From: an uncultured Candidatus Saccharibacteria bacterium
Lineage (GTDB): Bacteria; Patescibacteriota; Doudnabacteria; UBA920
Direction of reading: 5' to 3'
DNA: 64,000 nt
Assembly: GCA_964348935.1 (NCBI GenBank)
Contig: CAYGEJ010000003.1
Coordinates: 7,287 to 71,286 of the forward strand
Of the stretch, positions 11,345-56,855 are shown piece after piece. Both the position numbers and the translations under genes were made by a program. The notes under the pieces are model-generated. The model was not told the origin of the DNA and made no database searches. It saw nothing but the letters and a program-made list of their open reading frames with translations. The stretch's first letter is position 1; each line of letters begins with the position of its first letter.

Positions 11345-11842
11345 TTAGTTAGCAGGAATTGTACTGGAAAGGTTTTGCACTACGGTTACATCTATTGTAA
11401 CTTTTTTAGATAAATCATTTTGGTCAACCAAAATATACGCACGACCTGCATCTTTAGTTGCGTTTATGGTAAAAATTTTAGCTTGTTTATTTTCAACCAA
11501 AGTTGTTGCCCACCCCATATTAATCAAAAACTTCTCATACTCAATAGCAGCAGTTTTTTGAGCTAATTTACTTTCATAAATTAAAGTTCCCTGCACCGTA
11601 CCACTGGTAGCATTACTATTACTTGAAGACCTCGATATTACATTAGCACCAGGCTCTAATATCCATTCGGCGGTTATTCCCGGTGGATACATCTCTGCTA
11701 GAACAACTGTTTGTGATTCTTTTTTGTCTTCAATTATAGTTTGTGTAAACTTTTTATTCAAATATCCTCTTAAATAAAAAATTATTCCACTAACGAAAAT
11801 TAAAACTAGTATAAGATATATAAATTTTTTTTGGTTTGTCAT
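11345..11842 (-). CDS. N-terminally membrane-anchored hypothetical protein
   Basis: 165 aa, with a single TM followed by a Ser/Thr-rich soluble domain. Confidence 0.4.
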   Translation of the reverse strand: MTNQKKFIYLILVLIFVSGIIFYLRGYLNKKFTQTIIEDKKESQTVVLAEMYPPGITAEWILEPGANVISRSSSNSNATSGTVQGTLIYESKLAQKTAAIEYEKFLINMGWATTLVENKQAKIFTINATKDAGRAYILVDQNDLSKKVTIDVTVVQNLSSTIPAN

Positions 11843-11887
11843 TTGTTTATTATTAAAATTCTCTTATATAACAATTATAACACAAGG

Positions 11888-12268
11888 TTAATGCTTATTA
11901 TGACTAGCGTGCCTAACATGAATATGCCTAATTTTATGAAACAAAAAAGCGGAAATCCCCAAAATTAGCACACCTATCCAATATTGCATTGAGCCAAACA
12001 TAGAAACCCCTGTAAGTGGACTTAACCATAATAAATCGAACAGCAAATTAAAAATAGTCCAGAGAAATAATATAAAAATAACCTCTAAATAACTTAACAC
12101 ACCAAACCTTCTAATCATTGCAGTAACAACAACCCCAGTTAATACCCAAAAAACAATTTCCTGAATACCAGGGTCGGAAAAAATAGTGTAACTAAAAAAC
12201 CAGTACTTCAACAAGGCTAGAATTATCCACTGTATAAATGTAAAAAGTAGAAGTTTTTTGCCTGTCAT
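11888..12268 (-). CDS. Small polytopic membrane protein
   Basis: 126 aa with 3-4 TM segments. Confidence 0.4.
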   Translation of the reverse strand: MTGKKLLLFTFIQWIILALLKYWFFSYTIFSDPGIQEIVFWVLTGVVVTAMIRRFGVLSYLEVIFILFLWTIFNLLFDLLWLSPLTGVSMFGSMQYWIGVLILGISAFLFHKIRHIHVRHASHNKH

Positions 12269-31532: not shown

Positions 31533-33047
31533 TTATGGTGCTGGCTCCAAACTAACCCCACTTAAAAGCTTAACTTGAGGAATTGCTATGCAAGTTTTTT
31601 GTTCTTGAAGCACCACTCCTTTAAATACAAATTTATTCAAAAAGGTTTGAGTAATTTGACTAGTAACTTTTTCTACCACAGTAGATTGTTGATCAGAGCG
31701 TCCTTCAGATAAATATCTAACAAATATACCCTGCATTGCACTAACACTGACCGCAACTGGAGTAATGATATTTCCAATAGGATCTCTGGCAGCTTTTTGA
31801 CCCGGACTATTCAACTCAATTCCTGCGGCTTTTTCCGCTGCGACTTGGGCTTGTATGGCAATATCTTTATAGTATAATTCCCACCCACGAGGGTCTGACA
31901 AAAAATTACCCACCCGAGCCATTTTTATATAATAGTCAGGGTCATTCGTATCCAAACTGGCTGGGTCAAACCCTAAATACGTATCGGCTTTGCCTTTAAA
32001 AGCATTGGCGTAGTCAATATTACTCCCACAATTAATTTGCGGTATAAAATTCTTAATCATTACCCTGTCAATTGGATCCTGAACATATTTATTTAAATAA
32101 TCGTTGGCATACTGACCGCTAATTAAAGCATCGGAGTAATACAAAAAATTGGATATCCTATAAGCTTCTTCAATTTTATTGGCCAGCTGGTCTAAAAATG
32201 CCAGCATAAATCTGGCAATTGCCGTAGCAACAATCTCATTTAAAGCTTCCTTAGCTTTTGCCCAAATATCTATTGTGGCCAGTTGCGCATTAGCCACCGG
32301 TATAAACCACTGCTGGTTATCATTTTTCGAAGCTACCAAACGATACTTGATGTTTAAAGTGTTAAATTCATCTTCTGCTACTCTATTAGCTTCAGAAATT
32401 ATTGTATAATTTTTGTACATATTTGACCAAGGATTTTCAACCGAACCAGACATATACTGTTTTGAAGTCTGGAGCAAATCCAGATAGGAATACAGGCCAA
32501 TCAATATCTGTTTATGGAAATTTACCGCCTCTTTAGGGACTGGGGTATTGGTAAATTGTTTTGTGGCTATGGTAATATCGGCAATTAAAACTTCTAGCTT
32601 ATTTTTATTTCCGGACAAGTTAAAAACATCATCTACACCTGCATCTGTAGCATTTTTAATTTTGTCGATAATTGGCGAACTGGATGAAATGTATTTTTCC
32701 AAAGCCACTTTGCCAGTTTCAGAAGTTATTTTTAATTGAGTATTGGCAATAACTGGAATGACAATTTTCTGCTTTATATTCAATTGCTCTTCCACTGCCA
32801 TCCGAACTTCTGACTCGGGTACTATTTCTTTGAATAATTTTTCCTGAGCTTCCGGTGTTGTATTAATTGAGGCTAAATATTTTTTATAAGCTTCTTGGTT
32901 TTTTACAAAGGCATCCTCAATTGCCTGTCTGTTAGTAGGGTCTTCAAAGCCAAATTGGGGCTTACTCCAAAAAGAAACCAGTCCTAATATAATAATTAGG
33001 ACTAGTACGGTTACTAAAGATTGTTTTTGTTGTTTTGTTTCTAACAT
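31533..33047 (-). CDS. Membrane-anchored hypothetical extracytoplasmic protein
   Basis: 504 aa. N-terminal TM and no recognisable motifs. Confidence 0.4.
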   Translation of the reverse strand: MLETKQQKQSLVTVLVLIIILGLVSFWSKPQFGFEDPTNRQAIEDAFVKNQEAYKKYLASINTTPEAQEKLFKEIVPESEVRMAVEEQLNIKQKIVIPVIANTQLKITSETGKVALEKYISSSSPIIDKIKNATDAGVDDVFNLSGNKNKLEVLIADITIATKQFTNTPVPKEAVNFHKQILIGLYSYLDLLQTSKQYMSGSVENPWSNMYKNYTIISEANRVAEDEFNTLNIKYRLVASKNDNQQWFIPVANAQLATIDIWAKAKEALNEIVATAIARFMLAFLDQLANKIEEAYRISNFLYYSDALISGQYANDYLNKYVQDPIDRVMIKNFIPQINCGSNIDYANAFKGKADTYLGFDPASLDTNDPDYYIKMARVGNFLSDPRGWELYYKDIAIQAQVAAEKAAGIELNSPGQKAARDPIGNIITPVAVSVSAMQGIFVRYLSEGRSDQQSTVVEKVTSQITQTFLNKFVFKGVVLQEQKTCIAIPQVKLLSGVSLEPAP

Positions 33048-33093: not shown

Positions 33094-34707
33094 TTATTCA
33101 ATAATCTCTCCACCAAAGACTTTTAAAGCTTCTCCAATCGCATCACTCGCACTAATTGTTAATTTCTCGTCTTTTGCAATAACCTTAGCTAATAAACCAA
33201 TTTTTTCTCCACTAATACTTTCTACAATTGTTTTAATTAAAGCGGTATTTTTTGGGCTTTCTAAATTTTGCTTATCAAAATTAAATTTCGACTGTAATAC
33301 AATTCTGCCTCGCTCCACCCCAATTAACGGGGAGTTCTTTAACAAACTTGCGAGTGGTCCATTTGCCTCTTTGACTTTCGCAATAACTTTTGGCCAAATA
33401 GCTTCAACTTGAGCTAAAGTTAAATTAGAGGTCTCCACCTCTTCTTGCACAGACTCCATTTCTAAAAACTCTGACTCTTGCTTTGTAGGTTTAATTACTG
33501 ACTCTAAAATAGGCTGTTCAACTTTTACTTGCACAGACTCTTGCCCGGCTGGGTTTACAATTACCTGACTTGCCAACAAATTTGCTGGCCGGGATAATAA
33601 ATTAACTTTTTTAAGTGCGCCTTCTAAACTCGCAACCAAAAGTGGCACCTGTGGATCCGGAGAATTCTGCAAGTCCTTATAGGATTTTAAAAATAACCTA
33701 ATTACGTACATTATATCCGTCGCCGAATAACCTTCAGTAAACTTATTTAAGTTAGCGTTTCGTTCTGCACTCAAACCAAAATTTGTGTTATTTTCAGTAA
33801 TTTTAAAAATTAAGGCTTTACGCAAATACTCCAAAAAATCTCGATTGAAAATTACATAATCCAAACCTTTCTCAGTAATACCATTAAAAAAAACTGGAAT
33901 TTCTTTGGCTTGCCCGGTTACAATTAACTCAAGTAATTTTTCGCAAAAACCAATATCTGTCACACCTAAAAGAAGTTGGCATTCTTCAATAGTAACATCT
34001 GCACCCAAAGTTAAAACTTTATCTAATAAAGATAAGGAGTCACGCACGCTACCTTCTGCATTCTGAGCGACCAGCTCTAAAATACTATTATCTAGCTTAA
34101 CTCCTTCTTCCTCACATAATTTTTCCAAATGACTAACTAGGTCGGCCTGGGATAAAGCTTTAAAATCAAACTTTTGTGTTCTGGAAATAATAGTTGCAGG
34201 AACCTTGTTTATTTCGGTGGTGGCTAAAATAAAAATTACATGTTTTGGAGGTTCTTCCAAAGTTTTTAACAGTGCATTAAACGCACTCTTTGAAAGCATA
34301 TGGACTTCGTCAATGATAAATACTTTAAATTTTCCAATTGACGGAGCGAATCTCACATGCTCAATTAAATCTCTAACGTTTTCAACACTGGTATTTGAAG
34401 CGGCATCTATTTCAACCAAATCTATAAAATTCCCTTGTTCCACTGCTTTGCAAACTTCACAAGCACCACACGCATCCCCACTCTCATGCTTATCAACCCC
34501 CGAATCTGATAAAAAACCCTTACAATTAACAGCTTTTGCTAAAATCCTAGCAATTGAGGTTTTTCCAACCCCCCTACTACCTGTAAACAAATATGCATGA
34601 GCAACACCCCCGGACATAACCTGGTTTTTTAAGGTCTGAATAATGAATTTTTGGTTTAAAACATCAGCAAAAGTTTGCGGTCGATATTTCCTATAAAGAA
34701 CAGCCAT
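33094..34707 (-). CDS. dnaX: DNA polymerase III subunit gamma/tau
   Basis: 537 aa. YRPQTFADV, GSRGVGKTS Walker A, Zn module CGACEVC, DEVHML Walker B. Confidence 0.9.
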   Translation of the reverse strand: MAVLYRKYRPQTFADVLNQKFIIQTLKNQVMSGGVAHAYLFTGSRGVGKTSIARILAKAVNCKGFLSDSGVDKHESGDACGACEVCKAVEQGNFIDLVEIDAASNTSVENVRDLIEHVRFAPSIGKFKVFIIDEVHMLSKSAFNALLKTLEEPPKHVIFILATTEINKVPATIISRTQKFDFKALSQADLVSHLEKLCEEEGVKLDNSILELVAQNAEGSVRDSLSLLDKVLTLGADVTIEECQLLLGVTDIGFCEKLLELIVTGQAKEIPVFFNGITEKGLDYVIFNRDFLEYLRKALIFKITENNTNFGLSAERNANLNKFTEGYSATDIMYVIRLFLKSYKDLQNSPDPQVPLLVASLEGALKKVNLLSRPANLLASQVIVNPAGQESVQVKVEQPILESVIKPTKQESEFLEMESVQEEVETSNLTLAQVEAIWPKVIAKVKEANGPLASLLKNSPLIGVERGRIVLQSKFNFDKQNLESPKNTALIKTIVESISGEKIGLLAKVIAKDEKLTISASDAIGEALKVFGGEIIE

Positions 34708-34819
34708 ATGGTATGAATTTAAGTCATTTTATTATATCATCTACCAAGTAAAAAACAAACAGGAACACTTATGTTCCTGCGTTTTATACTAATATTTTTA
34801 ACCAATATGGCTCTAAGCT

Positions 34820-35491
34820 TTATTTCTTAAATACCACCACTTTATAACCAATAAAATTCCAAAATAAGGAAACTCCGGTAGCTAAAATTACAGCAATATT
34901 TTTATTTAAATCCGGGTTAGCAATTGGTTGCCAGTAAGTAGAAATAACTCCGACCAAAGATGAATTAATCCCAAGGCCAATTAATGTGACGGCAAAAAAC
35001 ACTAAAAATGAATGTCCTTGATGATCCCAATCGGAAAGATGAAATCCAAAACGCTTCCATAACACTGTTTCTAAAATCAAATAGACCCCAAGCACTCCGA
35101 CATAATAAATTGGTGGAGCCTGTTGACTAGCGCCTAATAACACAAAAAAAACACCTAAAGTGCCCAAAATTCCCACCTGGATTAAACGAAGAAAATTTTT
35201 AAATATACTTATCCCTTGTTCAGATCCAAAGGTCCAAGTTTTGTTCCATAAATAGCTCTGCAACACTGCAGCTGAAAAACCCACCACCGATACCGCACTT
35301 AACCTTATCCCTTGGTTAATTCCAAGAGCTTTTGATACACCGTTTAAAATTAAAAAATTTAACCCGGTATTTAAAACCCCAATACAACCAAATCTTAAAA
35401 ATTGATAAACAACTGGGTATCTTTCCAAAAAACTGGTCACTTTAAAAGCAATTCCTTTATTCTCAACAACTTGATTGCTATCTATATTCAT
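34820..35491 (-). CDS. GtrA-like polytopic membrane protein
   Basis: 223 aa. The N-terminal FGCIGVLNTGLNFLILN resembles GtrA family. Confidence 0.4.
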   Translation of the reverse strand: MNIDSNQVVENKGIAFKVTSFLERYPVVYQFLRFGCIGVLNTGLNFLILNGVSKALGINQGIRLSAVSVVGFSAAVLQSYLWNKTWTFGSEQGISIFKNFLRLIQVGILGTLGVFFVLLGASQQAPPIYYVGVLGVYLILETVLWKRFGFHLSDWDHQGHSFLVFFAVTLIGLGINSSLVGVISTYWQPIANPDLNKNIAVILATGVSLFWNFIGYKVVVFKK

Positions 35492-35515: not shown

Positions 35516-36136
35516 TTATAATTCTTCATCAACATCCATAATAATTTTACCACTGCCTGCACCCTCACCTAATTCTACATCTGCGTATTTAGTACCTGAC
35601 CCTTTTTTGATTACATTTTCTACCGCTGCCCATTCAGATACGTGACTTTGTGGCACGACAATAGTAACTTCGTCACCAGCTTCGGCTTTAAAATAAGTGA
35701 GCGAAGCTAATAAAACTTTATAAGTTTTGCCTTCGGCTATAACTTTAAAATCACCTTTTTCATCAACCAAAAGAATACCTAATTTTTTAACTCTTTCCAC
35801 AGGTCCAATTTGTTTATAAATAAACGAACCGTCTTCAGAAATTGTAAGTTTAAGAACATCACCTTCAATAAGTTTAGATTTTGAAGCATAATTTGCTGGT
35901 ACAGGGTACTGTTTCTTGTCTGGGCCTATCATATTCTGACCATCAAAGACCCCTTCAATAACTTTCCCGCCTTCAGAAACGCTAAAAGTCATAGCTTTTT
36001 CGGAAAGCTGACTCAAGTTGGCCTTAGTTGCATTTCCACCCATTAATTCGCGCATTATTTGTTTGGCGGATTGAATATTTTTCTCAGCCGAATCTATCAT
36101 TTGCGCCAAAAGCGCTAAATTTGAAATTTTATCCAT
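35516..36136 (-). CDS. Hypothetical protein (first of six co-oriented genes around the T4CP-like ATPase)
   Basis: 206 aa, no motif recognised. Confidence 0.35.
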   Translation of the reverse strand: MDKISNLALLAQMIDSAEKNIQSAKQIMRELMGGNATKANLSQLSEKAMTFSVSEGGKVIEGVFDGQNMIGPDKKQYPVPANYASKSKLIEGDVLKLTISEDGSFIYKQIGPVERVKKLGILLVDEKGDFKVIAEGKTYKVLLASLTYFKAEAGDEVTIVVPQSHVSEWAAVENVIKKGSGTKYADVELGEGAGSGKIIMDVDEEL

Positions 36137-36226
36137 ACTTTTTATTTTATTTTTGTTTCGAGATATTAAATTAAATCTTAACTATTATAACAGCAATCCC
36201 AAAAAGAAGCAAATATACTGAAAATA

Positions 36227-36673
36227 CTACTTAATTCTTAATTCTGGCAATAACTTTGCCTTTTCAGAATTAGAAAGTAAATAATCACAAAATTTTGGGT
36301 ACTTTATACATAACTGCTGAATAGTCATACCGGGCAAGGCGGCTTCCTCCAGGAAATCTGCAGAAGCTTTTAAGTCTTCAGAAATAATTTTAGATGCATA
36401 CTCTTTAATTTCTTTTTCAAAAACTTTTAGATCATTAGCCTCATAACCAAAGTGTAGAGCTTGTTTTAAAGTACTTATTTCCTCAAAATCCTTTTCAATA
36501 TCGGTTAGCATAGACAAAGTCTGATTCTCGTCTCTGCAATTTTTAATTTTAGAAATAACCCTCTGAGAAATCTCGGCTGCACGAGGCAAAGAAGTTCGGC
36601 GGGAACGAATTGCTTCCGCTAAAAACAATGCGACTAAATTATTAAAATTTTGTCCGGGGTATACTGCTTCCAT
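36227..36673 (-). CDS. Hypothetical protein
   Basis: 148 aa, no motif recognised. Confidence 0.35.
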   Translation of the reverse strand: MEAVYPGQNFNNLVALFLAEAIRSRRTSLPRAAEISQRVISKIKNCRDENQTLSMLTDIEKDFEEISTLKQALHFGYEANDLKVFEKEIKEYASKIISEDLKASADFLEEAALPGMTIQQLCIKYPKFCDYLLSNSEKAKLLPELRIK

Positions 36674-36682
36674 AATTTTTAT

Positions 36683-36979
36683 TTAATGATGCCCTCCGCC
36701 ATGGCCGTGCCCATGACCTCCCCCGTGCCCTCCACCATGACCTCCTCCACCACTTGCGCCAAAAAATTCTGCAATTGAATTTTGTGGCTCAGTTACCGCT
36801 CCCACTCCAGCTTCCCAGGCAGAATCAGACAAATTCTCTATCCAGTCGCGCAAACCATTTTTTGCATATATATTTGCAAGGCTAATTACTGGCATTCCCA
36901 CATCAATAATAAATGACTCATCATTACCATGATGATGCGAGTGCGATTCTACATGATGCCCTCCGCCAAGTGCTGACAT
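36683..36979 (-). CDS. His/Gly-rich small protein (candidate metal-binding)
   Basis: 98 aa. N-terminus GGGHHVESHSHHHG, C-terminus GGGGHGGGHGGGHGHGHGGGHH. Confidence 0.5.
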   Translation of the reverse strand: MSALGGGHHVESHSHHHGNDESFIIDVGMPVISLANIYAKNGLRDWIENLSDSAWEAGVGAVTEPQNSIAEFFGASGGGGHGGGHGGGHGHGHGGGHH

Positions 36980-36982
36980 AAG

Positions 36983-37222
36983 TTAAATCTGATAGTTAAA
37001 AATATAATCTCTATCGTTGAGCTTAAACTTCAACTCCTCTAAAAAAGTATAATTCAACGTGTGCTTATTTATAAAAGCTATTAAATCTGCTCTGGTAGTA
37101 ACGTTATCACACACAGCGTAAAATTCTTTTAACAAGAAAACTATATCCTTTTTGGTAACCGTGCGGTTCATAAAGCTAAATGCCAAGAAAGCACAAAATA
37201 TATGAATGTAATTCTCTTCCAT
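36983..37222 (-). CDS. Small hypothetical protein
   Basis: 79 aa. Its start is 4 nt from the upstream neighbour's stop. Confidence 0.3.
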   Translation of the reverse strand: MEENYIHIFCAFLAFSFMNRTVTKKDIVFLLKEFYAVCDNVTTRADLIAFINKHTLNYTFLEELKFKLNDRDYIFNYQI

Positions 37223-37275
37223 AATTAAATCTTATAATAAAACCAAGCTAAATGCAATATTCCCAAATTAAAATT

Positions 37276-39831
37276 CTAAAGCCCTCGTTCAATATCTGGT
37301 AAGGCTTTACTCATATTTTCCGCAACTGCACTGGCCTTCATAATTTCTTCTTCTACCTCCGCTCTTGGCCTGCCGTGTTTTACTCGGGACAATTGACGTA
37401 TTGCTTTTGCCTGTTCCTCGTTACCATTTCTCAAAAGTGGATAAGTGGATACATTAAACGGCTTACTAGCTGTACCATTGATCATTAACTTCATATACGC
37501 GTTATAACGGTCAATATTTACTAGATCAAACTCATTAAAAGTCGGTTTGAATTCCTTTGCCATAACTTCACTGTCTTCCGCACCAATTCGAAAACAAACC
37601 ATACTGCCGGCGTTACCAAATACCGCATCTCTCAAATCTTTACTTGCCGCGCCTTGAGCCCCTGCTGCCTGTTCTAGTTGTCCTAAATATTGATGGGCAA
37701 CAATTAAATTCAACCTGTACTTTCTCGCTTCAGAAAGAATAGAAGAAAAAGCATCAGTTATAAAATTTTGGAACTCATCAACATATAAGTAAAAGTCTGG
37801 GCGGTCTGCTTCTTTAGTATCAGCACGGGACAACGCTGCCATTTGTAGCTTGGAAACTATAATTAAACCGAGTAGTTTAGCATTAATTTCTCCAACTTTT
37901 CCTTTAGCTAAATTAATAAGCAAAATTTTTCGATTATCCATTACTTCTCTAAAATTAAAAGCGGATTTGGATTGACCGACGATGTTGCGCATCATGGAAT
38001 TTTCAACAAACCTACCGACTTTGGATATTAAATAACCGAGCATTTCACTTTTGTGAAAATCGGAAGTTTTTGCCATTTCTTTTTCCCAAAATAATTTTAC
38101 CACCGGATCTTTAAGCTTGCTGACTTTATACTTTTGAAATTCCGTATCGGTAAAAATCCTTGGAATATCTGTAATTGTTCCAGGATGCTCTTCGTCCGCC
38201 ATTAAAGTAAGCATTGCGTTTCTCATATTATGCTCAAACATTGGCCCAAGCATAGCCGGGTCAGTCACTAATTTGTAGAAAATAGAAATCATTTCCTGTA
38301 CTGCAAAATCTTTCTGCTCTTCACTATCCACTTCGAGCATATTCAATCCTAAAGGTCTATCCATATCAAAAGGTTCAAACAGAATAACATCTTCTGCCCG
38401 CTCTTTCGGAATATGCGGTAAAATATCTTCAATAAAATCACCGTGAGGGTCTATAATACAAAGACCCTCACCGTTCTTAATATCCTGAACCGACATATAC
38501 TTCATAATTTCCGTTTTACCACTACCCGTACGCCCAATCACATACATATGACGCCTGCGATCATCCCTCTGCATAAAAACTTTAGTTTCCTGTCCCCGAT
38601 AAATATTTCTACCGAGCAGTAACCCCTCGCTTGGTAAGTTTACTGGTGGCGATGCTTTTTTACTAACCAACCACTTAATATTCGGGGTTTCTATATACGG
38701 AGTTGGTAAGTGCCATAATGAAGCCAGCTCCTCAGTATTAAAAATACTTTTACTGCCATAGTCTCGAAATACTCTAAAGATATAATCTTTTAAAACATCA
38801 TTTTTATCCCGTCTCTTTGTTTTCAATCCGTTAAACGGAGGCATATTGTATTGTAAAAATGAAGATAATAAATTACGCATATGCACATCTGCACTTCCAG
38901 GAATAGAAGATGAAGTAATAATTCTTATATTTGTTTTAAATCCAGGACGACTGGCCTTTTCTTCCAATTTTTTTACTATCTCCTGTTGCATTGGTGTTAA
39001 CTGAATCGGCGAAGAATATCCGGACAGGTCTTTATGCGCATGCGAACCTTGTTGATTGTTTCCACTACCAACACCCGCCAAAGCTTTGCCCAAACTTCTC
39101 ATAAAACCAATAAAAAAACGATAAAAATGTCCCTTCTCAACCATTTCCGGATTCTTACCCTGCTGAATTTCCAAAGCCATATGTCTGGGCCTACCCTGCC
39201 AAGAAGTTCCAGCAGGGCTAATAATATACTGAATTACCGCACCTTCGTTTTCTGCTAATTTACTCATTGCATTGGTCAGTGAATTCAGAGGATCACTTTC
39301 CGTAGTTTTATATGTACGAAATGGATACACTGACTGCTTACTTAACTCCAATTCTGCAACTTCAACTTTACCGTCTTTTTGAAACGGATTATACCCGGGC
39401 ACTTCTTCAATAAAAGCATGCGGATACTGTGCTTGAATTTGTTTTTCCACTAATTGCTGTAAATGCCTTGGGCAATTTACATAAAAAGCAATTTTTTTGT
39501 CGGTACAAGCAATTTCAAAACTAAAATAATCCTTACCTAAAAGCCAGCCCTTATAATGACCACTTTCTGAAAGCGAGGTAAATAATTGCTCTGCTACTGA
39601 AATTAAAAGCTTTTTCTCTTCTTCATTTTTTGGCCGACTATCATCTTTGTCAGGTGAGCCATCTTTTGGCATTTGAATTTCCAAAAATACCCAGTCCTGA
39701 ATTCTTGGTACTATATGTTTGGTATGATACCTATGGATTTTGTAGTAATAAAAAAGAACAGCAAAAAATATTGCTGTCAGTCCAATTAAAACTAGCACTG
39801 TTATATTGAATGTGCTTAACTCAAAAATCAT
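37276..39831 (-). CDS. Membrane-anchored VirD4/TraG/TraD-like (type IV coupling protein-like, FtsK/HerA superfamily) P-loop ATPase
   Basis: 851 aa. N-terminal TM, Walker A VIGRTGSGKT, Walker B FYLYVDEFQNF. The NLIVAHQYLGQLEQAAG...VFGNAGSMVCFRIG segment resembles the TraG-D C-terminal motif. Confidence 0.55.
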   Translation of the reverse strand: MIFELSTFNITVLVLIGLTAIFFAVLFYYYKIHRYHTKHIVPRIQDWVFLEIQMPKDGSPDKDDSRPKNEEEKKLLISVAEQLFTSLSESGHYKGWLLGKDYFSFEIACTDKKIAFYVNCPRHLQQLVEKQIQAQYPHAFIEEVPGYNPFQKDGKVEVAELELSKQSVYPFRTYKTTESDPLNSLTNAMSKLAENEGAVIQYIISPAGTSWQGRPRHMALEIQQGKNPEMVEKGHFYRFFIGFMRSLGKALAGVGSGNNQQGSHAHKDLSGYSSPIQLTPMQQEIVKKLEEKASRPGFKTNIRIITSSSIPGSADVHMRNLLSSFLQYNMPPFNGLKTKRRDKNDVLKDYIFRVFRDYGSKSIFNTEELASLWHLPTPYIETPNIKWLVSKKASPPVNLPSEGLLLGRNIYRGQETKVFMQRDDRRRHMYVIGRTGSGKTEIMKYMSVQDIKNGEGLCIIDPHGDFIEDILPHIPKERAEDVILFEPFDMDRPLGLNMLEVDSEEQKDFAVQEMISIFYKLVTDPAMLGPMFEHNMRNAMLTLMADEEHPGTITDIPRIFTDTEFQKYKVSKLKDPVVKLFWEKEMAKTSDFHKSEMLGYLISKVGRFVENSMMRNIVGQSKSAFNFREVMDNRKILLINLAKGKVGEINAKLLGLIIVSKLQMAALSRADTKEADRPDFYLYVDEFQNFITDAFSSILSEARKYRLNLIVAHQYLGQLEQAAGAQGAASKDLRDAVFGNAGSMVCFRIGAEDSEVMAKEFKPTFNEFDLVNIDRYNAYMKLMINGTASKPFNVSTYPLLRNGNEEQAKAIRQLSRVKHGRPRAEVEEEIMKASAVAENMSKALPDIERGL

Positions 39832-39859
39832 TTATTTTTGTTTTTATATATTTCTAGCT

Positions 39860-40249
39860 CTAACCACCCTTAGACTTTTCCTTAGCGTGTTTTATAAGGG
39901 CTTCCATTGCCTCATAACCGGCTCCTAACTCACTAGCTTTAATCAGATCTATATCACCACTTAACGCACCGGCTAAAACTTCTGGAGAAATGTCTTTATT
40001 CGGAATTGAATTTATGTTTTCTTGACTTCCTGAGTACAAATTTTCTTCAGACACAGGCGCTACCACTACCCCACTATCTATGGCTTTTATTTGTTCTCGT
40101 ATGTCCTCTGCTCGTTTCGGATCTAAATTTTTATCTCCCAACAATATCTCTAAATTTCTTTTTGTCTCATTTTGTTTAGCATTATCAACAAAACCTTCGG
40201 GTACAGGTTGGATTTCAATATTTTGTTGTTTAGATAATTCTGAAGCCAT
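39860..40249 (-). CDS. Hypothetical acidic protein
   Basis: 129 aa, 28 nt upstream of the ATPase. Confidence 0.35.
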   Translation of the reverse strand: MASELSKQQNIEIQPVPEGFVDNAKQNETKRNLEILLGDKNLDPKRAEDIREQIKAIDSGVVVAPVSEENLYSGSQENINSIPNKDISPEVLAGALSGDIDLIKASELGAGYEAMEALIKHAKEKSKGG

Positions 40250-40398
40250 AAATTACTTAACTATTATACCATATAATAACTAAATATTATACACCTTTTT
40301 TAACATTTTGTCAACCATTTTAGAAAAAATACTATAGCTATACATAATATAACTAAACAATGAAGATTTAATAAGTTTAATTTAAAGGGTCACTACTA

Positions 40399-40788
40399 TT
40401 ACTTATTAACGATCTTTAGCATAGCGTACTTTTCATTATTAAAAGTGTTAAAGCCGACCGCTTCAAAAAGATCAACCGCACTCGTTACACTCAATACCTC
40501 AAAAATTTGTAGTTTCTTAGCTTTCTTTAAACAAAGTAAAATTAACTTTTTTCCAATTCCTTGGTGCTGGTACTCTTCTTTCACAACCAAGCTCCTAATT
40601 TCTGCAAGACGCTTTGAATAAACCTCCAAGGCACAACACCCCACCACTTCCCCGTCTGCCAAAGCAACAAAAAACTCCTCAACTTGGGGAAAAAACTTTT
40701 GTACTAACTGTTTTGGATAAAGCTTAATTAACTTTTGAATATTTACCCAATCTGCTTTGGTTGCAGGTCTATAAGTTACTTTCTTCAT
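40399..40788 (-). CDS. GNAT-family N-acetyltransferase
   Basis: 129 aa. QHQGIGKKL acetyl-CoA-binding motif. Confidence 0.7.
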   Translation of the reverse strand: MKKVTYRPATKADWVNIQKLIKLYPKQLVQKFFPQVEEFFVALADGEVVGCCALEVYSKRLAEIRSLVVKEEYQHQGIGKKLILLCLKKAKKLQIFEVLSVTSAVDLFEAVGFNTFNNEKYAMLKIVNK

Positions 40789-41708
40789 CTTCTATCAAGA
40801 TCGTTTAAAGCTTTAACACTACCCGACAAAGTTTTCAATGTTTTGCTTAATTTATCTGTAATAAAATCACCAAGAGCAAATAGTTTTTCGATTTTAGCCT
40901 TGTTTGTTAAATACTTAGGGGTATATATGTAGACTTGATTTCCTATAAATTCCAAATTACAATTCGGCCAATTTTCTAACATCTTAGAAATAAAATCGGG
41001 AGTAAATAATTGCAAAGTTTCTATTTCATACTGCTCTTTGGTATATAAATCAAATTTATTATCTAATTTTTTATCAGTTTTTATTTTTACTGAATTATTA
41101 AAAGTAGCCCTTATACCACCAAAATACTGGCTATCCACCACAAGTAATACTGGAGGTAAACTAAAATTATAAGTTAATCGAATTAAGGTAAATCGTTTAA
41201 ACTCTTTGTGCTTACCGCTACCAATGGTATAAATATAATTAAATAGTTTTACTGGTATTTTATGTAATTCACCACTAAATACATTGGAAACATAAGGACT
41301 ATGGCCAATATTAAACAATGCACACTCTTTATCTTTTATAACCTCTGTTTTTGAATAGGTCAGATTATGGTTTTGAGCAAATTGTTGAAAAAATAAATTT
41401 TCAAATAATAAAGTATACCTTCTATTTACTATTGCAACCAATGTAATTGGTATTCCTAAAATAACCACAAATACACCAATTAAATCTTCCTCAGTCATCT
41501 TAAAATTAGGCATATACCACCAATAAAAAAATAGACTGGTTATCAAGAGCCATGAAAATAAAACAAACCAAAAAAGTCTTTTTTCGTCCAAAGTATAACT
41601 TCCAATAAAAGCTTTATGTGCATCACTGTCCACATCCTCAACTACAAAACCTTCAGGAAGCACAGGCTTTCTGGTGAACATTGAATATATTGTTTTAAAA
41701 AAGCTCAT
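40785..41708 (-). CDS. Membrane protein of unknown function
   Basis: Trimmed to the internal Met (MSFFKT...) to remove a 95-nt overlap with the upstream gene. Has 2 TM segments. Confidence 0.4.
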   Translation of the reverse strand: MSFFKTIYSMFTRKPVLPEGFVVEDVDSDAHKAFIGSYTLDEKRLFWFVLFSWLLITSLFFYWWYMPNFKMTEEDLIGVFVVILGIPITLVAIVNRRYTLLFENLFFQQFAQNHNLTYSKTEVIKDKECALFNIGHSPYVSNVFSGELHKIPVKLFNYIYTIGSGKHKEFKRFTLIRLTYNFSLPPVLLVVDSQYFGGIRATFNNSVKIKTDKKLDNKFDLYTKEQYEIETLQLFTPDFISKMLENWPNCNLEFIGNQVYIYTPKYLTNKAKIEKLFALGDFITDKLSKTLKTLSGSVKALNDLDRR

Positions 41709-41712
41709 TCTT

Positions 41713-42078
41713 TTATATTTTATTTTCTTTTGTCCATTTTTCTTCGAGTCTCCTAACACCCGCTTCGTCAAAGCCAAAATGATGCCCAATTTCATGCCAG
41801 ACCACACGGCGAACTAAATTTGGAATATTAGGTTCTCCACCAGAAAATTTTTCTATAGTTCCTTTCCAAATTGTAATTTTATCTGGTAAAGTTGGCATAA
41901 TCCCATAACTACTTCCGCGGTTAAGCTGAGAAACGCCATGATACAGCCCAAACAAACTATTATTCGGACTTTCCCCTTCCTCTACTATAATTGCTACGTT
42001 ATTAAGCTTGTTTTGAATAGCCTCAGGCAAAGCCTCTACCGACTGAGTTACCAAACTTTCAAAGTCTTCTAGTTGCAT
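41713..42078 (-). CDS. Small zincin-like metallopeptidase-fold protein (DUF1025-like)
   Basis: 121 aa. HEIGHHFG HExxH motif. Confidence 0.5.
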   Translation of the reverse strand: MQLEDFESLVTQSVEALPEAIQNKLNNVAIIVEEGESPNNSLFGLYHGVSQLNRGSSYGIMPTLPDKITIWKGTIEKFSGGEPNIPNLVRRVVWHEIGHHFGFDEAGVRRLEEKWTKENKI

Positions 42079-53701: not shown

Positions 53702-54025
53702 TTAACTCATCTTGATTTCTACATCTACTCCTGCCGGTAAGCTCAAATTTGTTAGAGCGTCTATTGTCTTTGGAGTTGCGGAGACTATATCTATTAATCT
53801 CTTATGGACACGCATTTCAAATTGCTCTCTACTGTCTTTGTGTACGAAAGTGGAACGAAGTACAGTGTACTTTGTTTTTTCGGTTGGCAATGGAATGGGC
53901 CCAGAAATAGTAGCGCCAGTTCGCTTGGCTGTTTCCACAATCTGTTTAGCACTTTGATCAATAAGCTTATGGTCATAAGCTCTTATCTTTATGCGGATTT
54001 TTGGTACTGCTACTTCCTTGTCCAT
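53702..54025 (-). CDS. rpsJ: 30S ribosomal protein S10
   Basis: 107 aa, [15 protein letters not shown]-terminus. Confidence 0.95.
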
Positions 54026-54171: not shown

Positions 54172-54200
54172 TTGACAAAAGGCTTGAAAAGGTGTATAAT
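54172..54200 (+). promoter_or_regulatory. Near-consensus sigma70-type promoter driving the plus-strand island genes
   Basis: TTGACA (54172-54177), a 17-nt spacer, then TGtTATAAT with TATAAT at 54195-54200. Confidence 0.55.
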
Positions 54201-54316
54201 AAATATCTTAGTGTCAAAATTTAGTGAATATTTATTTGGATTTAATGGCTTTCCTATGCGGGAAAAACTATAAAATCTTAATCTGGTGCTCGCTAAACAA
54301 TCTCCTGGAGGAGAAA

Positions 54317-54487
54317 ATGAAACAAGACCACTCGAACCTTGATTGGTTCGTAAGGGATTTCATGACAGTGATCATAATCCTTTTCGTGTTGTTTGCCCCG
54401 ACCGTCTGGCTGACACTGGATACGGCCAACATTAAAGGAAATCCATCGGCCTACGTTTGGGAGCGAACCGTCGTCGCAATTAAATAG
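54317..54487 (+). CDS. 56-aa small membrane peptide (one TM)
   Basis: A GGAGGAG Shine-Dalgarno lies 6 nt upstream. Hydrophobic core VIIILFVLFAPTVWLTL. This is the shorter in-frame start within track ORF 54224..54487. Confidence 0.45.
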   Translation: MKQDHSNLDWFVRDFMTVIIILFVLFAPTVWLTLDTANIKGNPSAYVWERTVVAIK

Positions 54488-54671: not shown

Positions 54672-54968
54672 ATGCAAATAGTTCTGGACCAAAAAGGCTT
54701 CTACGAAGCCGCACTGCTCGGCCTCGAGGCGCAAAAAACGCGCATCGAGAAAATGATCACCGGCATTAAGCAACTCGCCGGCAAAAAACCGGTAACGACG
54801 AACATCGCCGAGGCGGCCAAAGTCGCCATCGGCGCCCGCAAAAAGCACGCCAACGGTGCCGGCGCCAAACGCAAAAAACGGAACCTGAGCCCCGAAGCTC
54901 GCCAGCGTATCGCCGATGCGCAAAAGAAGCGCTGGGCGGCGTTCCGGAAGGACGGCGCGGCGGCCTAA
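54672..54968 (+). CDS. 98-aa basic Lys/Arg/Ala-rich protein, possibly nucleic-acid-binding
   Basis: Spot counts of about 55% GC. AGGGAGA Shine-Dalgarno. Helical N-terminus, then GARKKHANGAGAKRKKRNLSPEARQRIADAQKKRWAAFRK. Confidence 0.5.
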   Translation: MQIVLDQKGFYEAALLGLEAQKTRIEKMITGIKQLAGKKPVTTNIAEAAKVAIGARKKHANGAGAKRKKRNLSPEARQRIADAQKKRWAAFRKDGAAA

Positions 54969-55109: not shown

Positions 55110-55484
55110 ATGCCTAAACACACCGTCTTCTTTATTTTTTTCGCCCTAGGCCTTAATGCCCAGCAAGCGAGCGAGAGTAAGTTCCGTTGTAGCGACGGGA
55201 ACGTAACTTGGAAACCCGGCAACACGCCGAGCACAAAGGATCAAGGGTCCGCGCAAACGGAGTGCTGCAAGCTCCGCACCAACTACCAAAACTACGGCAA
55301 AGACCAAAAAGACCTGGAGGCATGCAAAAATATACCTCCGGACAAAGAACGTCTTGACCTGTTCTATGTAGAGTGTCGTATGTTCAATATGCCGTGGTGC
55401 TCCTATCTACTCCCCAAATCAATGGGAAAGGACTACTCCACCAAACCCAAACCTCCTGCAAAGGCCACAAAGAAACTCAAGTAA
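55110..55484 (+). CDS. Small secreted Cys-rich protein (8 Cys), Lys-rich C-terminal tail
   Basis: 124 aa. AAGGGGG Shine-Dalgarno. Signal peptide MPKHTVFFIFFALGLNAQQA. The GC is elevated. Confidence 0.5.
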   Translation: MPKHTVFFIFFALGLNAQQASESKFRCSDGNVTWKPGNTPSTKDQGSAQTECCKLRTNYQNYGKDQKDLEACKNIPPDKERLDLFYVECRMFNMPWCSYLLPKSMGKDYSTKPKPPAKATKKLK

Positions 55485-55673: not shown

Positions 55674-56855
55674 CTATTTTAAAATTTTTGTTACAACACC
55701 AGCACCTACAGTGTGCCCACCTTCTCTGATGGCGAATTTACCTTTTTCTTCTAAAGCTACTGGGGTAATTAACTTAACTACCAATTTTACAGTATCTCCA
55801 GGCATAACCATTTCTTGGCCTTCTGGCAAAGTAATGTCACCGGTAACGTCGGTTGTTCTAATGTAGAATTGTGGCTTATAACCTTTAAAGAATGGAGTAT
55901 GACGTCCGCCTTCTTCTTTGGTCAAAACATAAATTTCAGTTTCAAATTCTGTATGTGGGTTAATGGAACCTGGTTTACATAATACTTGTCCGCGTTCTAC
56001 TTCATCTTTCTTAGTACCACGAAGCAAAATACCAGCATTGTCCCCTGCCATACCGCTATCTAACTGTTTATTGAACATTTCAATACCAGTTACAACAGTT
56101 TTTGCTGTTGGCTTAAGACCAACGATTTCAATTTCTTCGTTAATCTTAATTTGACCTCTTTCAATTCTACCTGTGACTACAGTTCCTCTTCCTTCAATTG
56201 AGAAAATGTCTTCGATAGGCATTAAGAAAGGTTGATCAACTTCACGAGTAGGATCAGGGATGTAAGTATCTAAAGTATCAACCAATTTTAAAATAGTTGC
56301 TTCATATTCAGCATCGCCTTCCAAAGCTTTCAAAGCAGAACCACGAATAATTGGAGTATCTTTTCCAGGGAAATCATACTTTGTCAAAAGATCTCTAATT
56401 TCTTCTTCTACTAAGTCCAACAGTTCAGCATCCTGAACCATATCACACTTGTTCATATAAACAACAATGAACTTAACACCTACCTGGTTAGCAAGCAAAA
56501 TATGCTCACGAGTTTGAGGCATTGGACCGTCAGCGGCGGATACCACCAAAATAGCACCATCCATTTGAGCAGCACCAGTTATCATGTTTTTGATATAGTC
56601 AGCGTGACCAGGACAGTCTACGTGAGCGTAGTGTCTCTTGGCGCTTTCGTATTCAACGTGAGCGGTGTTAATGGTAATACCACGGGCTTTTTCTTCAGGA
56701 GCGTTATCGATAGAATCGTATGCTCTTGCTTTTGCTCCTCCAGTTTTGGAAAGCACAGTAGTAATAGCAGCTGTCAAAGTGGTTTTACCGTGGTCAACGT
56801 GACCAATGGTTCCAACGTTGACGTGTGTCTTACTACGGTCAAATTTATCAGCCAT
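55674..56855 (-). CDS. tuf: Elongation factor Tu
   Basis: 393 aa. [14 protein letters not shown] and NKCD G-motifs. Confidence 0.97.

Follow-up and report, generated by a model that had tools for sequence, protein, structure and literature searches.

Genes and predicted transcription unit at the locus

The window analysed here, a stretch of 64,000 nucleotides on a contig of Doudnabacteria-like Patescibacteria, carries six ORFs on its minus strand, coding for proteins of 129, 851, 79, 98, 148 and 206 aa and separated by gaps of 28, 53, 3, 9 and 90 nt; a preliminary description of this DNA had given their coordinates and lengths exactly. That description regarded the ORFs as a tight six-gene operon centred on the 851-aa protein, a coupling-protein-like ATPase. 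The ORFs do lie close together on the same strand, but both features are uninformative here because they match the genome background: the minus strand carries 71 of the 76 called genes of the window, and same-strand gaps have a median of 45 nt (80% are ≤90 nt). A perfect match to a sigma-70-type promoter (TTGACA-17 nt-TATAAT; 40286..40314, minus strand; 12 of 12 consensus positions, read directly from the sequence) lies 37 nt before the ATG of the 129-aa ORF. The exact pattern occurs only twice in the 64 kb (0 expected from 100 shuffles), and the copy at 40286..40314 probably marks where the transcription unit starts. At the other end, a gene for a 223-aa GtrA/DPMS-family membrane protein (34820..35491, minus strand; Pfam GtrA_DPMS_TM, E = 4.9e-15) begins 24 nt beyond the 206-aa ORF and probably closes the unit. 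Between its stop codon and dnaX, a scan and direct reading revealed a terminator-like hairpin (34759..34780, minus strand; 9 bp with 4 G-C pairs, followed by TTTGTTTTTT), which is the sole well-placed hairpin with a T-run and, by its match to the consensus, a putative terminator. Together, promoter and terminator suggest a bracketed unit of seven genes, including the GtrA-like gene, rather than of six.

Conservation of the small ORFs was assessed over 84 loci from many Patescibacteria lineages. Directly upstream of the ATPase gene, the confirmed 129-aa ORF (39860..40249, minus strand) codes for an acidic low-complexity protein (net charge -8) without a match in Pfam, NCBIfam, PHROG or PADLOC, and its sequence was found at the window locus only; the related loci L001 and L003 hold positional equivalents of 120-123 aa that can barely be aligned with it. 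A small acidic same-strand ORF ending ≤200 nt from the ATPase start was present in 51 of 73 loci (median net charge -5, median gap ~10 nt, several overlapping the ATPase start by 4 nt), and hhalign detected no homology among the upstream families F3, F5 and the 129-aa group. Conservation beside the ATPase gene applies to the position and not to the sequence, the upstream ORFs belonging to mutually unrelated lineage-specific families. The 129-aa protein may be an adaptor or regulator of the ATPase specific to its lineage, an adaptor role of the upstream small proteins being a guess because they are not homologous between lineages.

Among the ORFs downstream of the ATPase gene, the clade-specific 79-aa ORF (36983..37222, minus strand; ORF confirmed) belongs to a family present in 4 of the 84 loci, with homologues of 35-41% identity in the closest relatives L001-L003 only, and had no match in Pfam, NCBIfam, PHROG or PADLOC. 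The confirmed 98-aa ORF (36683..36979, minus strand; net charge -8), also clade-specific and without a family match, belongs to a family found in 2 of the 84 loci and has His/Gly-rich N- and C-termini, which the ORFs in the same position in L001, L003, L090 and L093 (83-92 aa) retain around a diverged middle. The helical 148-aa ORF (36227..36673, minus strand), which had no significant family match, is patchily distributed: its family occurs in a few sister-clade loci of the 84, is missing from L001 and L003, and in L005, L099 and L103 is represented by homologues of 30-37% identity directly after the ATPase gene. We read these three ORFs as fast-evolving clade-specific filler, co-transcribed with the ATPase gene but not machine parts.

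The 206-aa protein (35516..36136, minus strand; homologues and AF2 model), on the other hand, is a conserved Patescibacteria protein with more than 7,800 homologues, none of which has a Pfam domain, and with a NYASKSKL motif that is invariant or nearly so. Its AF2 model (pLDDT 70 overall, ~80-87 for aa 57-178) comprises two helices at the N-terminus and a pair of small beta domains with five strands each and OB/S1/cold-shock-like topology, followed by an acidic tail that in this clade ends in DEEL (VDEEL here, DEDEEL as the consensus in close relatives); weak Foldseek matches were obtained to the RNase R/RNase II cold-shock pair, S1, IF1, IF5A and the tandem OB of Mpa (best E = 7e-4). In a reciprocal search from this family, 37 of 52 loci encoded DnaX downstream but only 16 of 64 encoded the ATPase upstream, and the order 206-aa protein, GtrA, DnaX recurred in many loci. 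The 206-aa protein is mainly linked to GtrA and DnaX rather than to the ATPase, and in our reading the OB-like and GtrA-like proteins form a separate conserved trio with dnaX, as co-transcribed neighbours and not machine parts. The earlier proposal that the ATPase and five small partners make up a self-contained device is not supported, as small-ORF conservation largely fails across the 84 loci: the 206-aa family and the upstream position are conserved, but the 79-, 98- and 148-aa ORFs and the sequence of the 129-aa protein are not. Profile searches placed the N-domain of the ATPase in a family (DUF8128, see below) and gave no significant family match for the 129-, 79-, 98- and 148-aa proteins.

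Architecture of the 851-aa ATPase

The 851-aa protein (37276..39831, minus strand) is a VirD4/TraG/TrwB-type coupling-protein ATPase, that is, a type IV coupling protein (T4CP) of the VirD4/TrwB family and the DUF8128 subfamily, on the basis of Pfam and NCBIfam matches, homologues and its AF2 model. A transmembrane (TM) anchor is followed by the DUF8128 N-domain (~350 aa) and then by a nucleotide-binding domain like that of TrwB, which includes an all-alpha insertion and a TraG-D_C segment. All four T4CP-type Pfam models passed their gathering cut-offs (T4SS-DNA_transf, 38.8 bits vs 20.1; TrwB_AAD_bind, 38.2 vs 20.5, aa 419-730; DUF87, 34.9 vs 23.2; TraG-D_C, 22.9 vs 22, aa 681-749), while the NCBIfam T4CP equivalog models all stayed far below theirs (SXT_TraD, 58.5 vs 366). 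The AF2 model (pLDDT 81.8) reached TM scores of 0.61-0.66 against TrwB, normalised to TrwB. Foldseek matched it to VirB4, TrwB, HerA, Cagbeta and DotL, and DotL and TrwB were the sole matches of a PDB sequence search. The coupling-protein character assigned to the ATPase at the outset is borne out by these results, as are its N-terminal TM segment, Walker motifs and TraG-D-like C-terminal segment.

The TM helix (aa ~8-30; 39742..39810, minus strand) is the sole such segment of the protein in a Kyte-Doolittle analysis (2.64 in a 19-residue window at the N-terminus) and forms one long helix (aa 7-45) in the AF2 model. The basic stretch KIHRYHTKH follows it, which under the positive-inside rule would put most of the protein in the cytoplasm. 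The alpha/beta domain DUF8128 (PF26449; aa ~46-400; 38632..39696, minus strand) was located from precomputed Pfam assignments, and the nucleotide-binding domain (aa ~404-800; 37432..38622, minus strand) from motifs, TrwB_AAD_bind and the AF2 model, whose secondary structure places the all-alpha insertion at aa 505-618. Walker A (GRTGSGKT, aa 433-440; 38512-38535, minus strand) and Walker B (YLYVDE, aa 681-686; 37774-37791, minus strand), read from the sequence, were invariant together with many other positions in two alignments of 33 and 64 sequences (A1 and A3). The catalytic motifs of the protein are intact, and it has an all-alpha insertion and one membrane anchor.

Its membrane anchor, its housekeeping locus near dnaX and its membership in the FtsK-HerA superfamily of P-loop ATPases would also fit a chromosome-segregation translocase of the FtsK/SpoIIIE type. 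We consider this very unlikely: FtsK_SpoIIIE reached 13.3 bits where the cut-off is 24 and no stretch passed, a gamma-domain match was absent, there is one TM helix and not four or more, the best structural matches were VirB4, TrwB, Cagbeta and DotL rather than FtsK, and at least one member of the phylum, the saccharibacterium TM7x, has a separately annotated FtsK (PMC10768705). By the test set beforehand, the protein is a coupling protein rather than FtsK.

The best Foldseek PDB matches of the whole model were VirB4 chains (R388 TrwK; E = 9e-15, ~930 columns, TM ~0.3), a suggestive hint that the N-domain may resemble that of TrwK/VirB4. The VirB4 models CagE_TrbE_VirB, P-loop_TraG and AAA_10 had no match in the Pfam scan of the 851-aa protein, NCBIfam VirB4_plasma scored 15.6 against a cut-off of 590, and the N-domain profile did not match the one plasmid VirB4 with which it was compared.

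DUF8128 relatives and conservation in Patescibacteria

The N-domain had been thought to be unique, but phmmer retrieved 2,163 cluster representatives (E ≤ 1e-3), and DUF8128 is common to coupling proteins of Bacillus, Clostridium and Streptomyces-type plasmids and of Bacillus phages. A PDB sequence search with the domain gave no match, and a literature search on the term DUF8128 found no paper that uses it and no experimental work on any such protein. In hhalign, the N-domain aligned with that of a T4CP-like protein of Bacillus subtilis (WP_213380696; probability 99%, E = 3e-18, 232 columns), encoded on the 65-kb plasmid NRS6107_2, where genes for a replication-relaxation family protein, a conjugal transfer protein, TcpE and a VirB4-like ATPase follow. 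On an Embleya plasmid the order is PrgI, VirB4-like, homologue (WP_331738717), replication-relaxation and NlpC/P60, and phage G has genes for TrbL-like and VirB4-like proteins together with the homologue gp156, a full-length match to the 851-aa model (TM 0.63-0.65). The plasmid and phage DUF8128 genes adjoin VirB4, VirB3, VirB6-like and relaxase-family genes. The 851-aa protein has the N-domain type of coupling proteins of monoderm conjugative plasmids and some Bacillus phages.

More than 4,600 homologues of the 851-aa protein were found, the best 120 of which are all from Patescibacteria (72-100% identity); close relatives are named 'type IV secretion system DNA-binding domain-containing protein' at NCBI. 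Among at least 600 genome loci, the 80 retained span many Patescibacteria lineages, with identities from 68% down to 40%. Compared with two relatives, the ATPase showed 78% and 74% identity, SecY 81% and 81%, and DnaX 53% and 50%, and synteny with the ribosomal protein operon (ribosomal proteins of the window were assigned via synteny with L001 and L003), SecY and DnaX is preserved in relatives. The gene is near-universal in Patescibacteria, conserved at the level of SecY and set in housekeeping surroundings, and the T4CP is chromosomal and vertically inherited. In line with the earlier description, no relaxase, VirB4, pilin, secretin, T4SS or com genes were found across the 64-kb window in a scan covering most ORFs over ~200 aa; except for two of unknown function, the large ORFs scanned code for housekeeping proteins (EF-G, EF-Tu, SecY, enzymes of glycolysis and the pentose-phosphate pathway, RecJ, MreB, a histidine kinase and DnaX). 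The ±8-kb flanks of the 80 related loci contained no T4SS component, relaxase or pilin gene either, the neighbours checked there being CysS, AspS, CorA, ribonucleotide reductase, methyltransferases and DnaX.

The plasmid and phage homologues, a full-length match to phrog_5156 (E = 1.8e-94; members in SPO1-like phages) and a PADLOC mad8 match on the ATPase domain (E = 1.2e-17) could point to what is left of an integrated conjugative element, a prophage or a defence island, the small ORFs being its cargo. Such an origin is extremely unlikely, given that the G+C content (0.35-0.37) and GC skew equal those of the flanks, that integrase, relaxase, tRNA, repeat boundary and other MADS components (PADLOC) are absent, that SecY and DnaX synteny is conserved in relatives, and that identity is 40-100% to Patescibacteria homologues versus 20-29% to plasmid and phage ones.

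Orphan T4CPs in Patescibacteria were reported in 2025. According to Quinonero-Coronel et al. (PMC12102498), 5,713 T4CP homologues occur in the phylum, only 148 of them near virB4, so that the lack of T4SS parts near a T4CP gene is the published rule. The 851-aa gene is almost certainly one of these 5,713 VirD4-type homologues; as far as it was examined, that paper describes neither DUF8128 nor the relatives on plasmids and in phages, nor does it mention the small acidic ORF upstream, synteny with dnaX or conservation at the level of SecY. The ORFs, the T4CP identity and the missing T4SS neighbours of the preliminary description stand, while the unique N-domain and the dedicated six-gene machine do not: since most small neighbours are not dedicated partners, the locus holds a known kind of orphan coupling protein.

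Proposed role and comparison with known systems

We favour, with a probability of about 0.5, a role of the T4CP as a motor and substrate receptor that is tethered to the membrane and feeds a channel whose genes lie elsewhere. A hexamer tethered to the membrane on its cytoplasmic face would bind a substrate (protein-bound DNA, or protein) via the all-alpha and DUF8128 domains and use ATP to push it into the channel, probably aided or gated by the small acidic protein from the upstream ORF. Subunits with a single TM helix each are unlikely to make a conduit, which argues for a motor and receptor and not a complete translocon. The channel would most likely be the monoderm-type T4SS that most Patescibacteria have at another locus; the T4SS of the phylum derives from the monoderm MPF-FATA class (PMC12102498). 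It is only homology that points to a physical link between ATPase and T4SS, because no T4SS genes lie in the window or the related flanks. Conservation to the level of SecY would be unusual in a mobile-element coupling protein and counts against a T4SS motor, as do the low NCBIfam equivalog scores and a Tn-seq study whose authors saw no recognisable coupling protein or relaxase in the T4SS cluster (PMC10633639).

The ATPase may instead, though we regard this as doubtful, be an exapted housekeeping motor independent of T4SS, that is, an ancestral monoderm T4SS coupling protein now engaged in VirB4-free DNA handling at the membrane, such as DNA uptake, in which it would pull DNA through ComEC, or the clearing or positioning of chromosomal DNA. 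Conservation equal to that of SecY and ribosomal proteins, housekeeping neighbourhoods with adjacent T4SS genes in 0 of 84 loci, and the proximity of dnaX (26 of 84 loci) and the OB-like protein are consistent with this. According to PMC12102498, moreover, T4CP homologues are more widespread than VirB4 (2,918 vs 2,417 of 3,035 genomes), the T4CP homologue of Southlakia epibionticum is dispensable where T4SS genes are essential, both of which also speak against a T4SS motor, and the authors themselves keep exaptation as possible. However, direct evidence for another partner is lacking, the lone TM helix provides no channel of its own, and the link of the OB-like protein to the ATPase is weak because that protein tracks DnaX and GtrA. 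Deletion of comEC in S. epibionticum abolishes competence without affecting viability (PMC12857230), so an uptake role would not explain such strong conservation, and with ftsK annotated in TM7x a replacement of FtsK is not obviously needed.

With the VirD4/TrwB/TraD/TraG T4CPs, for example TrwB of R388 (PDB 1E9R), Cagbeta and DotL, the 851-aa protein shares the RecA-like nucleotide-binding domain with Walker A/B motifs, the all-alpha insertion, the TraG-D_C segment and a membrane anchor at the N-terminus. Canonical T4CPs such as TrwB have two TM helices, whereas the 851-aa protein has one, and unlike the VirD4/TrwB/TraD/TraG proteins it carries the 350-aa DUF8128 domain between anchor and ATPase and is encoded by a chromosomal gene that is near-universal in its phylum, conserved like SecY and without nearby relaxase or T4SS genes. 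With VirB4 (TrwK of R388, PDB 7O42/8RTD) it has in common an N-terminal alpha/beta domain of ~400 aa followed by a TrwB-like C-terminal ATPase. The coupling genes of the DUF8128 type on mobile elements adjoin replication-relaxation and T4SS genes (VirB4-like, PrgI, TcpE, TrbL-like, NlpC/P60), none of which lies near the window gene; despite an identity of only 20-29%, their products have the same architecture over the whole length as the 851-aa protein, including the N-domain.

A coupling-protein-family ATPase with one membrane anchor

The 851-aa protein (37276..39831, minus strand) is an ATPase of the coupling-protein family; its catalytic motifs are intact, and it has one membrane anchor. 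The Pfam models T4SS-DNA_transf (38.8 bits, cut-off 20.1), TrwB_AAD_bind (38.2 bits, cut-off 20.5), TraG-D_C (22.9 bits, cut-off 22) and DUF87, the last confined to aa 415-510, all exceeded their gathering scores and covered aa 414-750. The NCBIfam equivalog models for specific coupling protein (T4CP) types all fell far under their cut-offs, and NCBIfam gave sub-threshold matches only, to the TraD, CD1115, CedB/CedD and HerA models. Since the Pfam family models passed and the equivalogs failed, the ATPase is assigned to the T4CP family without a named subtype. Sequence matches in the PDB were to DotL and TrwB only, near the Walker A motif. In alignments, the Walker A (GRTGSGKT) and Walker B (YLYVDE) motifs were invariant across the ATPase family, and on these intact motifs the protein is predicted to be very probably active. 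An identical ATPase was found on a 75-kb NCBI/ENA contig; the nearest relatives are labelled Candidatus Doudnabacteria or Patescibacteria and are named T4SS DNA-binding-domain proteins by NCBI.

An AF2 model of the ATPase was built from a 64-sequence alignment (mean pLDDT 81.8). The N-terminal transmembrane (TM) segment reported in the preliminary description is present as a single hydrophobic helix (aa ~8-30), modelled as a long helix, whereas canonical T4CPs have two TM helices. The N-domain (aa 46-400) is alpha/beta and well predicted, and the RecA-like domain carries an all-alpha insertion, helical at aa 505-618. In a Foldseek search of the PDB, the model matched TrwB with an E-value of ~2e-12 and a TM score of 0.61-0.66 normalised to TrwB, and HerA, Cagbeta and DotL were also among the matches. 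This TrwB-like fold, together with the Pfam scores, bears out the VirD4/TraG-like identity that had been proposed. The top Foldseek matches were the R388 TrwK/VirB4 chains (E=9e-15, ~930 columns), with an overall TM score of only ~0.3. As the ~930-column alignment spans both proteins entirely, it suggests that the N-domain may resemble the VirB4 N-terminal domain, which we regard as a lead and not a result. By sequence models the protein is not a VirB4 ATPase: the VirB4 Pfam models (CagE_TrbE_VirB, AAA_10/P-loop_TraG) were absent from its matches, and NCBIfam VirB4_plasma scored 15.6 against a cut-off of 590. A profile of the N-domain gave no real match to PDB sequences and none to a plasmid VirB4.

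FtsK-like, mobile-element-remnant and defence-system readings of the locus were disfavoured by direct tests. The ATPase is not an FtsK/SpoIIIE translocase, the alternative named at the outset: the FtsK_SpoIIIE model reached 13.3 bits against a cut-off of 24, no stretch passed, there was no match to the gamma domain, and the protein has a single TM helix. A role as a replacement for FtsK is weakened, for TM7x only, by the annotated ftsK of that organism (PMC10768705). A HerA-NurA helicase is disfavoured by NCBIfam HerA scores of 14.3 against 970 and 11.7 against 800, and by the lack of a NurA-like neighbour. For MADS defence, PADLOC mad8 matched the ATPase domain only (E=1.2e-17), and the five small proteins encoded beside the ATPase had no mad match.

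Neighbouring small genes and the transcription unit

Six minus-strand ORFs were confirmed where they had been described, coding for proteins of 129 (39860..40249), 851, 79 (36983..37222), 98 (36683..36979), 148 (36227..36673) and 206 aa (35516..36136) and separated by 28, 53, 3, 9 and 90 nt. These gaps had been read as a tight six-gene operon, a part of the description that holds only partly. The minus strand carries 71 of the 76 called genes of the window, and same-strand gaps have a median of 45 nt, with 80% at or below 90 nt; tight spacing and a shared strand are thus the genome background, and neither alone indicates an operon. The G+C content of the window is ~0.36 with a strong GC skew. 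The skew is uniformly negative, which, with 71 of 76 genes on one strand, is consistent with a single replichore and co-directional genes.

A perfect TTGACA-17-TATAAT promoter (40314-40286, minus strand) lies 37 nt upstream of the 129-aa ORF; two exact sites of this kind occur in the 64 kb, against none expected. At the other end, 24 nt beyond the 206-aa ORF, is a gene coding for a GtrA-family membrane protein (34820-35491, minus strand, Pfam), and 3' of it a terminator-like hairpin with a T-run (34780-34759, minus strand). The predicted promoter and hairpin suggest one transcription unit, and because the hairpin is found only after the GtrA-like gene, this unit would likely comprise seven genes, not six.

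The only other perfect promoter site of the window (54172-54200, plus strand) is oppositely oriented and has a near-identical 3' spacer (AAAAGGTGTATAAT). It lies in the 1.6 kb that separate rpsJ (53702-54025) from tuf (55674-56855), a stretch of higher G+C content (~0.42) with three small plus-strand ORFs, coding for a hydrophobic 87-aa protein (54224-54487), a very basic 98-aa protein (54672-54968) and a 124-aa protein with a signal-peptide-like start and many Cys residues (55110-55484). The stretch looks like a small inserted cassette, divergently transcribed, inside the str/S10 region.

The five small proteins had no significant match in profile searches of Pfam, NCBIfam, PHROGs and PADLOC, and their conservation was assessed by calling and clustering ORFs in 84 ATPase loci. 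Across these loci the 129-aa sequence was found in the window only; the closest relatives carry proteins of 120-123 aa at its position that are barely alignable. Of the 73 loci that extend far enough upstream, 51 have as their next gene in that direction one that shares the strand of the ATPase, codes for at most 330 aa and ends within 200 nt of it (median gap ~10 nt, with several overlapping the ATPase start by 4 nt). The proteins at this position are acidic, polar in the N-terminal half and more hydrophobic in the C-terminal half, and include two families without a Pfam match, F3 (~170 aa, 22-24 loci) and F5 (~135 aa, 13-14 loci). Iterated HMM searches and hhalign gave no mutual remote homology among the upstream families F3, F5, F66/F75 and the 129-aa group, nor between family F20 and other small ORFs (probabilities <1% in each case). 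A small acidic ORF just upstream of the ATPase is therefore conserved in position, not in sequence.

On the downstream side, the 79-aa ORF occurs in the closest relatives only (35-41% identity), as does the 98-aa ORF, of which only the His/Gly-rich ends are kept. The 148-aa ORF is missing from the closest relatives, and its sister-clade homologues (30-37% identity) lie directly after the ATPase. His/Gly-rich N- and C-termini (e.g. GGGGGGHGH) around a diverged middle were seen in the 98-aa ORF (36683-36979) and in its positional equivalents in the comparison loci L001 (12828-13106), L003 (12861-13136), L090 (376-627) and L093 (301-561); such ends may point to metal binding or to a low-complexity tail protein.

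For the 206-aa protein, over 7,800 homologues were found; it carries no Pfam domain, has motifs that are near-invariant (e.g. NYASKSKL), and lies downstream of the ATPase in 27 of the 84 loci. In a reciprocal test that started from the 206-aa family in metagenome contigs, 37 of 52 loci had DnaX no more than three genes downstream, often beyond a GtrA-like gene, whereas the ATPase was upstream in only 16 of 64, indicating that the 206-aa protein belongs primarily with GtrA and DnaX. The trio of 206-aa OB-like, GtrA and DnaX genes (35516-36136, 34820-35491 and 33094-34707) is widely recurrent in Patescibacteria independently of the ATPase, including many of the comparison loci L088-L167; a second recurrent context has proteins of ~435, ~310 and ~125 aa in front of the 206-aa family. 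The AF2 model of the 206-aa protein (pLDDT 70 overall, ~80-87 for aa 57-178) starts with two helices and continues with a pair of five-stranded beta domains, in each of which a short helix follows strand 3, and Foldseek gave weak matches to the tandem cold-shock/S1/OB domains of RNase R, RNase II, S1, IF1, IF5A and Mpa (best E=7e-4). On this model, nucleic acid binding is plausible. An acidic tail ending in DEEL (DEDEEL consensus in close relatives) is found in some lineages only; this restriction, the weak OB matches and the stronger GtrA/DnaX association weaken a role as an SSB-like partner of the ATPase.

A six-gene translocation device with five partners, as first proposed, is therefore not upheld: the 129-aa sequence was found in the window only, the 79-, 98- and 148-aa proteins are limited to clades, and the 206-aa protein is tied to GtrA and DnaX. 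Small ORFs without conservation had been named beforehand as the outcome that would count against the proposal, and this is largely what was observed, the upstream position and the 206-aa protein being the exceptions.

Genomic context, constraint and a possible role

In line with the preliminary description, no relaxase, VirB4, pilin or secretin gene was found in the 64-kb window, nor a VirB6, com or integrase gene, and the flanks of the 84 ATPase loci contained no T4SS genes or relaxase. A coupling protein far from T4SS genes is the norm in Patescibacteria (PMC12102498). The window also encodes EF-G, EF-Tu, SecY, a Zincin_1 protein, DnaX, an HtrA-type protease, RuvX, glycolytic and pentose-phosphate enzymes, RecJ, MreB and a histidine kinase, as well as a ribosomal protein operon assigned by synteny with L001 and L003, two of the closest relatives. 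There were no tRNA genes in the 64 kb, and an Rfam scan of it returned no RNA family. An ICE or prophage was rejected on a composition equal to that of the flanks, the lack of a tRNA in the window, housekeeping neighbours, synteny kept in relatives and missing hallmark genes.

Three further regions of the window stood out. Block 4001-12000 has a G+C content of 0.42-0.43 against ~0.35, and contains a gene for a 1,485-aa protein with a weak BACON_2 match only (4295-8752, minus strand) and a 734-aa ORF without a Pfam match (8920-11124, plus strand), one of very few plus-strand genes; it may be an acquired surface-protein island. Between the Zincin_1 and SecY genes and the 129-aa ORF, three genes are extra relative to L001 and L003 (40399-42680), coding for a HAD hydrolase, a basic 340-aa protein with two TM helices and no family match (40785-41807) and a GNAT acetyltransferase (40399-40788). 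The 504-aa protein encoded after dnaX (31533-33047) has a lone N-terminal TM helix and matched no family; it keeps its position in L001 (16464-18128) and L003 (16397-18268), as proteins of 554-623 aa with 32-35% identity, and is a fast-evolving envelope protein.

With one genome per species, a pattern scan turned up at least 600 ATPase loci. The 80 that were kept bear the lineage labels Doudna-, Magasanik-, Uhr-, Komeili-, Falkow-, Staskawicz-, Berkel-, Moran-, Peregrini-, Curtiss-, Levy-, Davies- and Woesebacteria, among others, and ATPase identity across them drops from 68% to 40%, a graded pattern that fits vertical descent. In two relatives with the whole neighbourhood in common, the ATPase was 78% and 74% identical, SecY 81% in both, and DnaX 53% and 50%; six ribosomal proteins, compared likewise, ranged from 60% to 87%. 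Identity close to the level of SecY points to a housekeeping-grade constraint on the gene. In keeping with this, VirD4-type homologues have been counted at 5,713 in 2,918 of 3,035 Patescibacteria genomes, only 148 of them near virB4, with VirB4 present in 2,417 genomes and relaxases rare; in S. epibionticum the T4SS is essential and the T4CP homologue is not (PMC12102498). The Tn-seq study describes a T4SS cluster without a recognisable coupling protein or relaxase (PMC10633639).

We give a probability of about one half to the reading that the ATPase feeds substrate to a channel encoded elsewhere, most economically the phylum's own MPF-FATA-derived T4SS. The ATPase would form a hexamer tethered to the cytoplasmic face of the membrane, bind substrate and pass it to that channel; with one TM helix per subunit, it is itself unlikely to be the conduit. 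The upstream acidic protein may act as a lineage-specific adaptor or regulator. The main rival, that the ATPase was exapted to a T4SS-independent role, is rather unlikely on our estimate; it draws on a gene more widespread than VirB4, a T4CP homologue dispensable where the T4SS is essential, very high conservation and neighbourhoods that are always housekeeping. A broader version, which we consider speculative and improbable, makes the DUF8128 coupling protein (named for its N-domain) a core T4SS-independent membrane motor of Patescibacteria with lineage-specific small acidic partners, handling DNA or another polymer at the envelope, for example in import from or export to a host; if true, it would explain both the spread beyond VirB4 and the SecY-level conservation.

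A large part of bacterial diversity falls within Patescibacteria, which are host-dependent, and the passage of material to and from their hosts is little understood. In the one species of theirs that is open to genetics the T4SS is essential, yet it apparently lacks a coupling protein and relaxase. The obvious choice for the coupling protein that is missing is the DUF8128 T4CP family, which might otherwise be an exapted motor. The handles for deciding are the DUF8128 domain held in common with experimentally tractable conjugative plasmids, the conserved upstream position, and the neighbours to disregard.

Relation to known systems

The value of the analysis is mostly negative: the six-gene device is no module, and orphan T4CPs of Patescibacteria are already on record, the ATPase being a further member of this catalogued set. 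Judging by the literature searched, the following appear to be new to our knowledge: the link of DUF8128 to plasmid and phage coupling proteins beside relaxase-family genes, the possible VirB4-like N-domain, the SecY-level conservation, the conserved position of the upstream acidic ORF, and the separateness of the 206-aa/GtrA/DnaX trio from the ATPase. The search found no paper mentioning DUF8128 and nothing useful on replication-relaxation proteins characterised together with a T4CP.

PF26449 (DUF8128), N-terminal of the ATPase domain, is present in the identical protein and all listed homologues, an assignment taken from precomputed Pfam annotation. With aa 1-405 as query, phmmer retrieved 2,163 of 1.84 billion cluster representatives at E<=1e-3 and 177 at E<=1e-30; the N-domain, once described as unique, is thus shared with many proteins, including plasmid and phage homologues. 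The whole ATPase matched phrog_5156 (E=1.8e-94), and full-length homologues with 20-23% identity were found in SPO1-like Bacillus phages, phage G (gp156) and Geobacillus phage D6E, the BFVD model of gp156 superposing on the ATPase model with a TM score of 0.63-0.65. Plasmid homologues that include the N-domain come from Bacillus subtilis, Clostridium botulinum, Clostridium sporogenes, Embleya and others, and hhalign matched the N-domain profile to the B. subtilis plasmid protein with a probability of 99% (E=3e-18). The N-domain is therefore conserved and common to coupling proteins of conjugative elements. The conjugation-like genes of the lytic Bacillus phages (phage G, 87009-97114, locus L085; SPO1L1, 55439-67838, locus L084) are annotated as hypothetical or mis-annotated as MsbA-like.

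Known T4CPs work with small partners such as CagZ, TraM, PcfF and the DotL adaptors, which offer an analogy for the upstream acidic protein. Downstream of the homologue's gene on the B. subtilis plasmid come those for a member of the replication-relaxation family, a conjugal transfer protein, TcpE and a VirB4-like ATPase; the Embleya cluster runs from PrgI through a VirB4-like ATPase to the homologue, and on to a replication-relaxation protein and NlpC/P60. Phage G encodes in a row TrbL_4 (VirB6-like, gp153), P-loop_TraG/AAA_10 (VirB4-like, gp155) and the T4CP-like gp156, and in SPO1-like phages, among them SPO1L1, the T4CP-like homologue has an Alp7A-type actin before it and a Replic_Relax protein after it. 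By these conjugation contexts, DUF8128 marks a coupling-protein subfamily of monoderm mobile elements.
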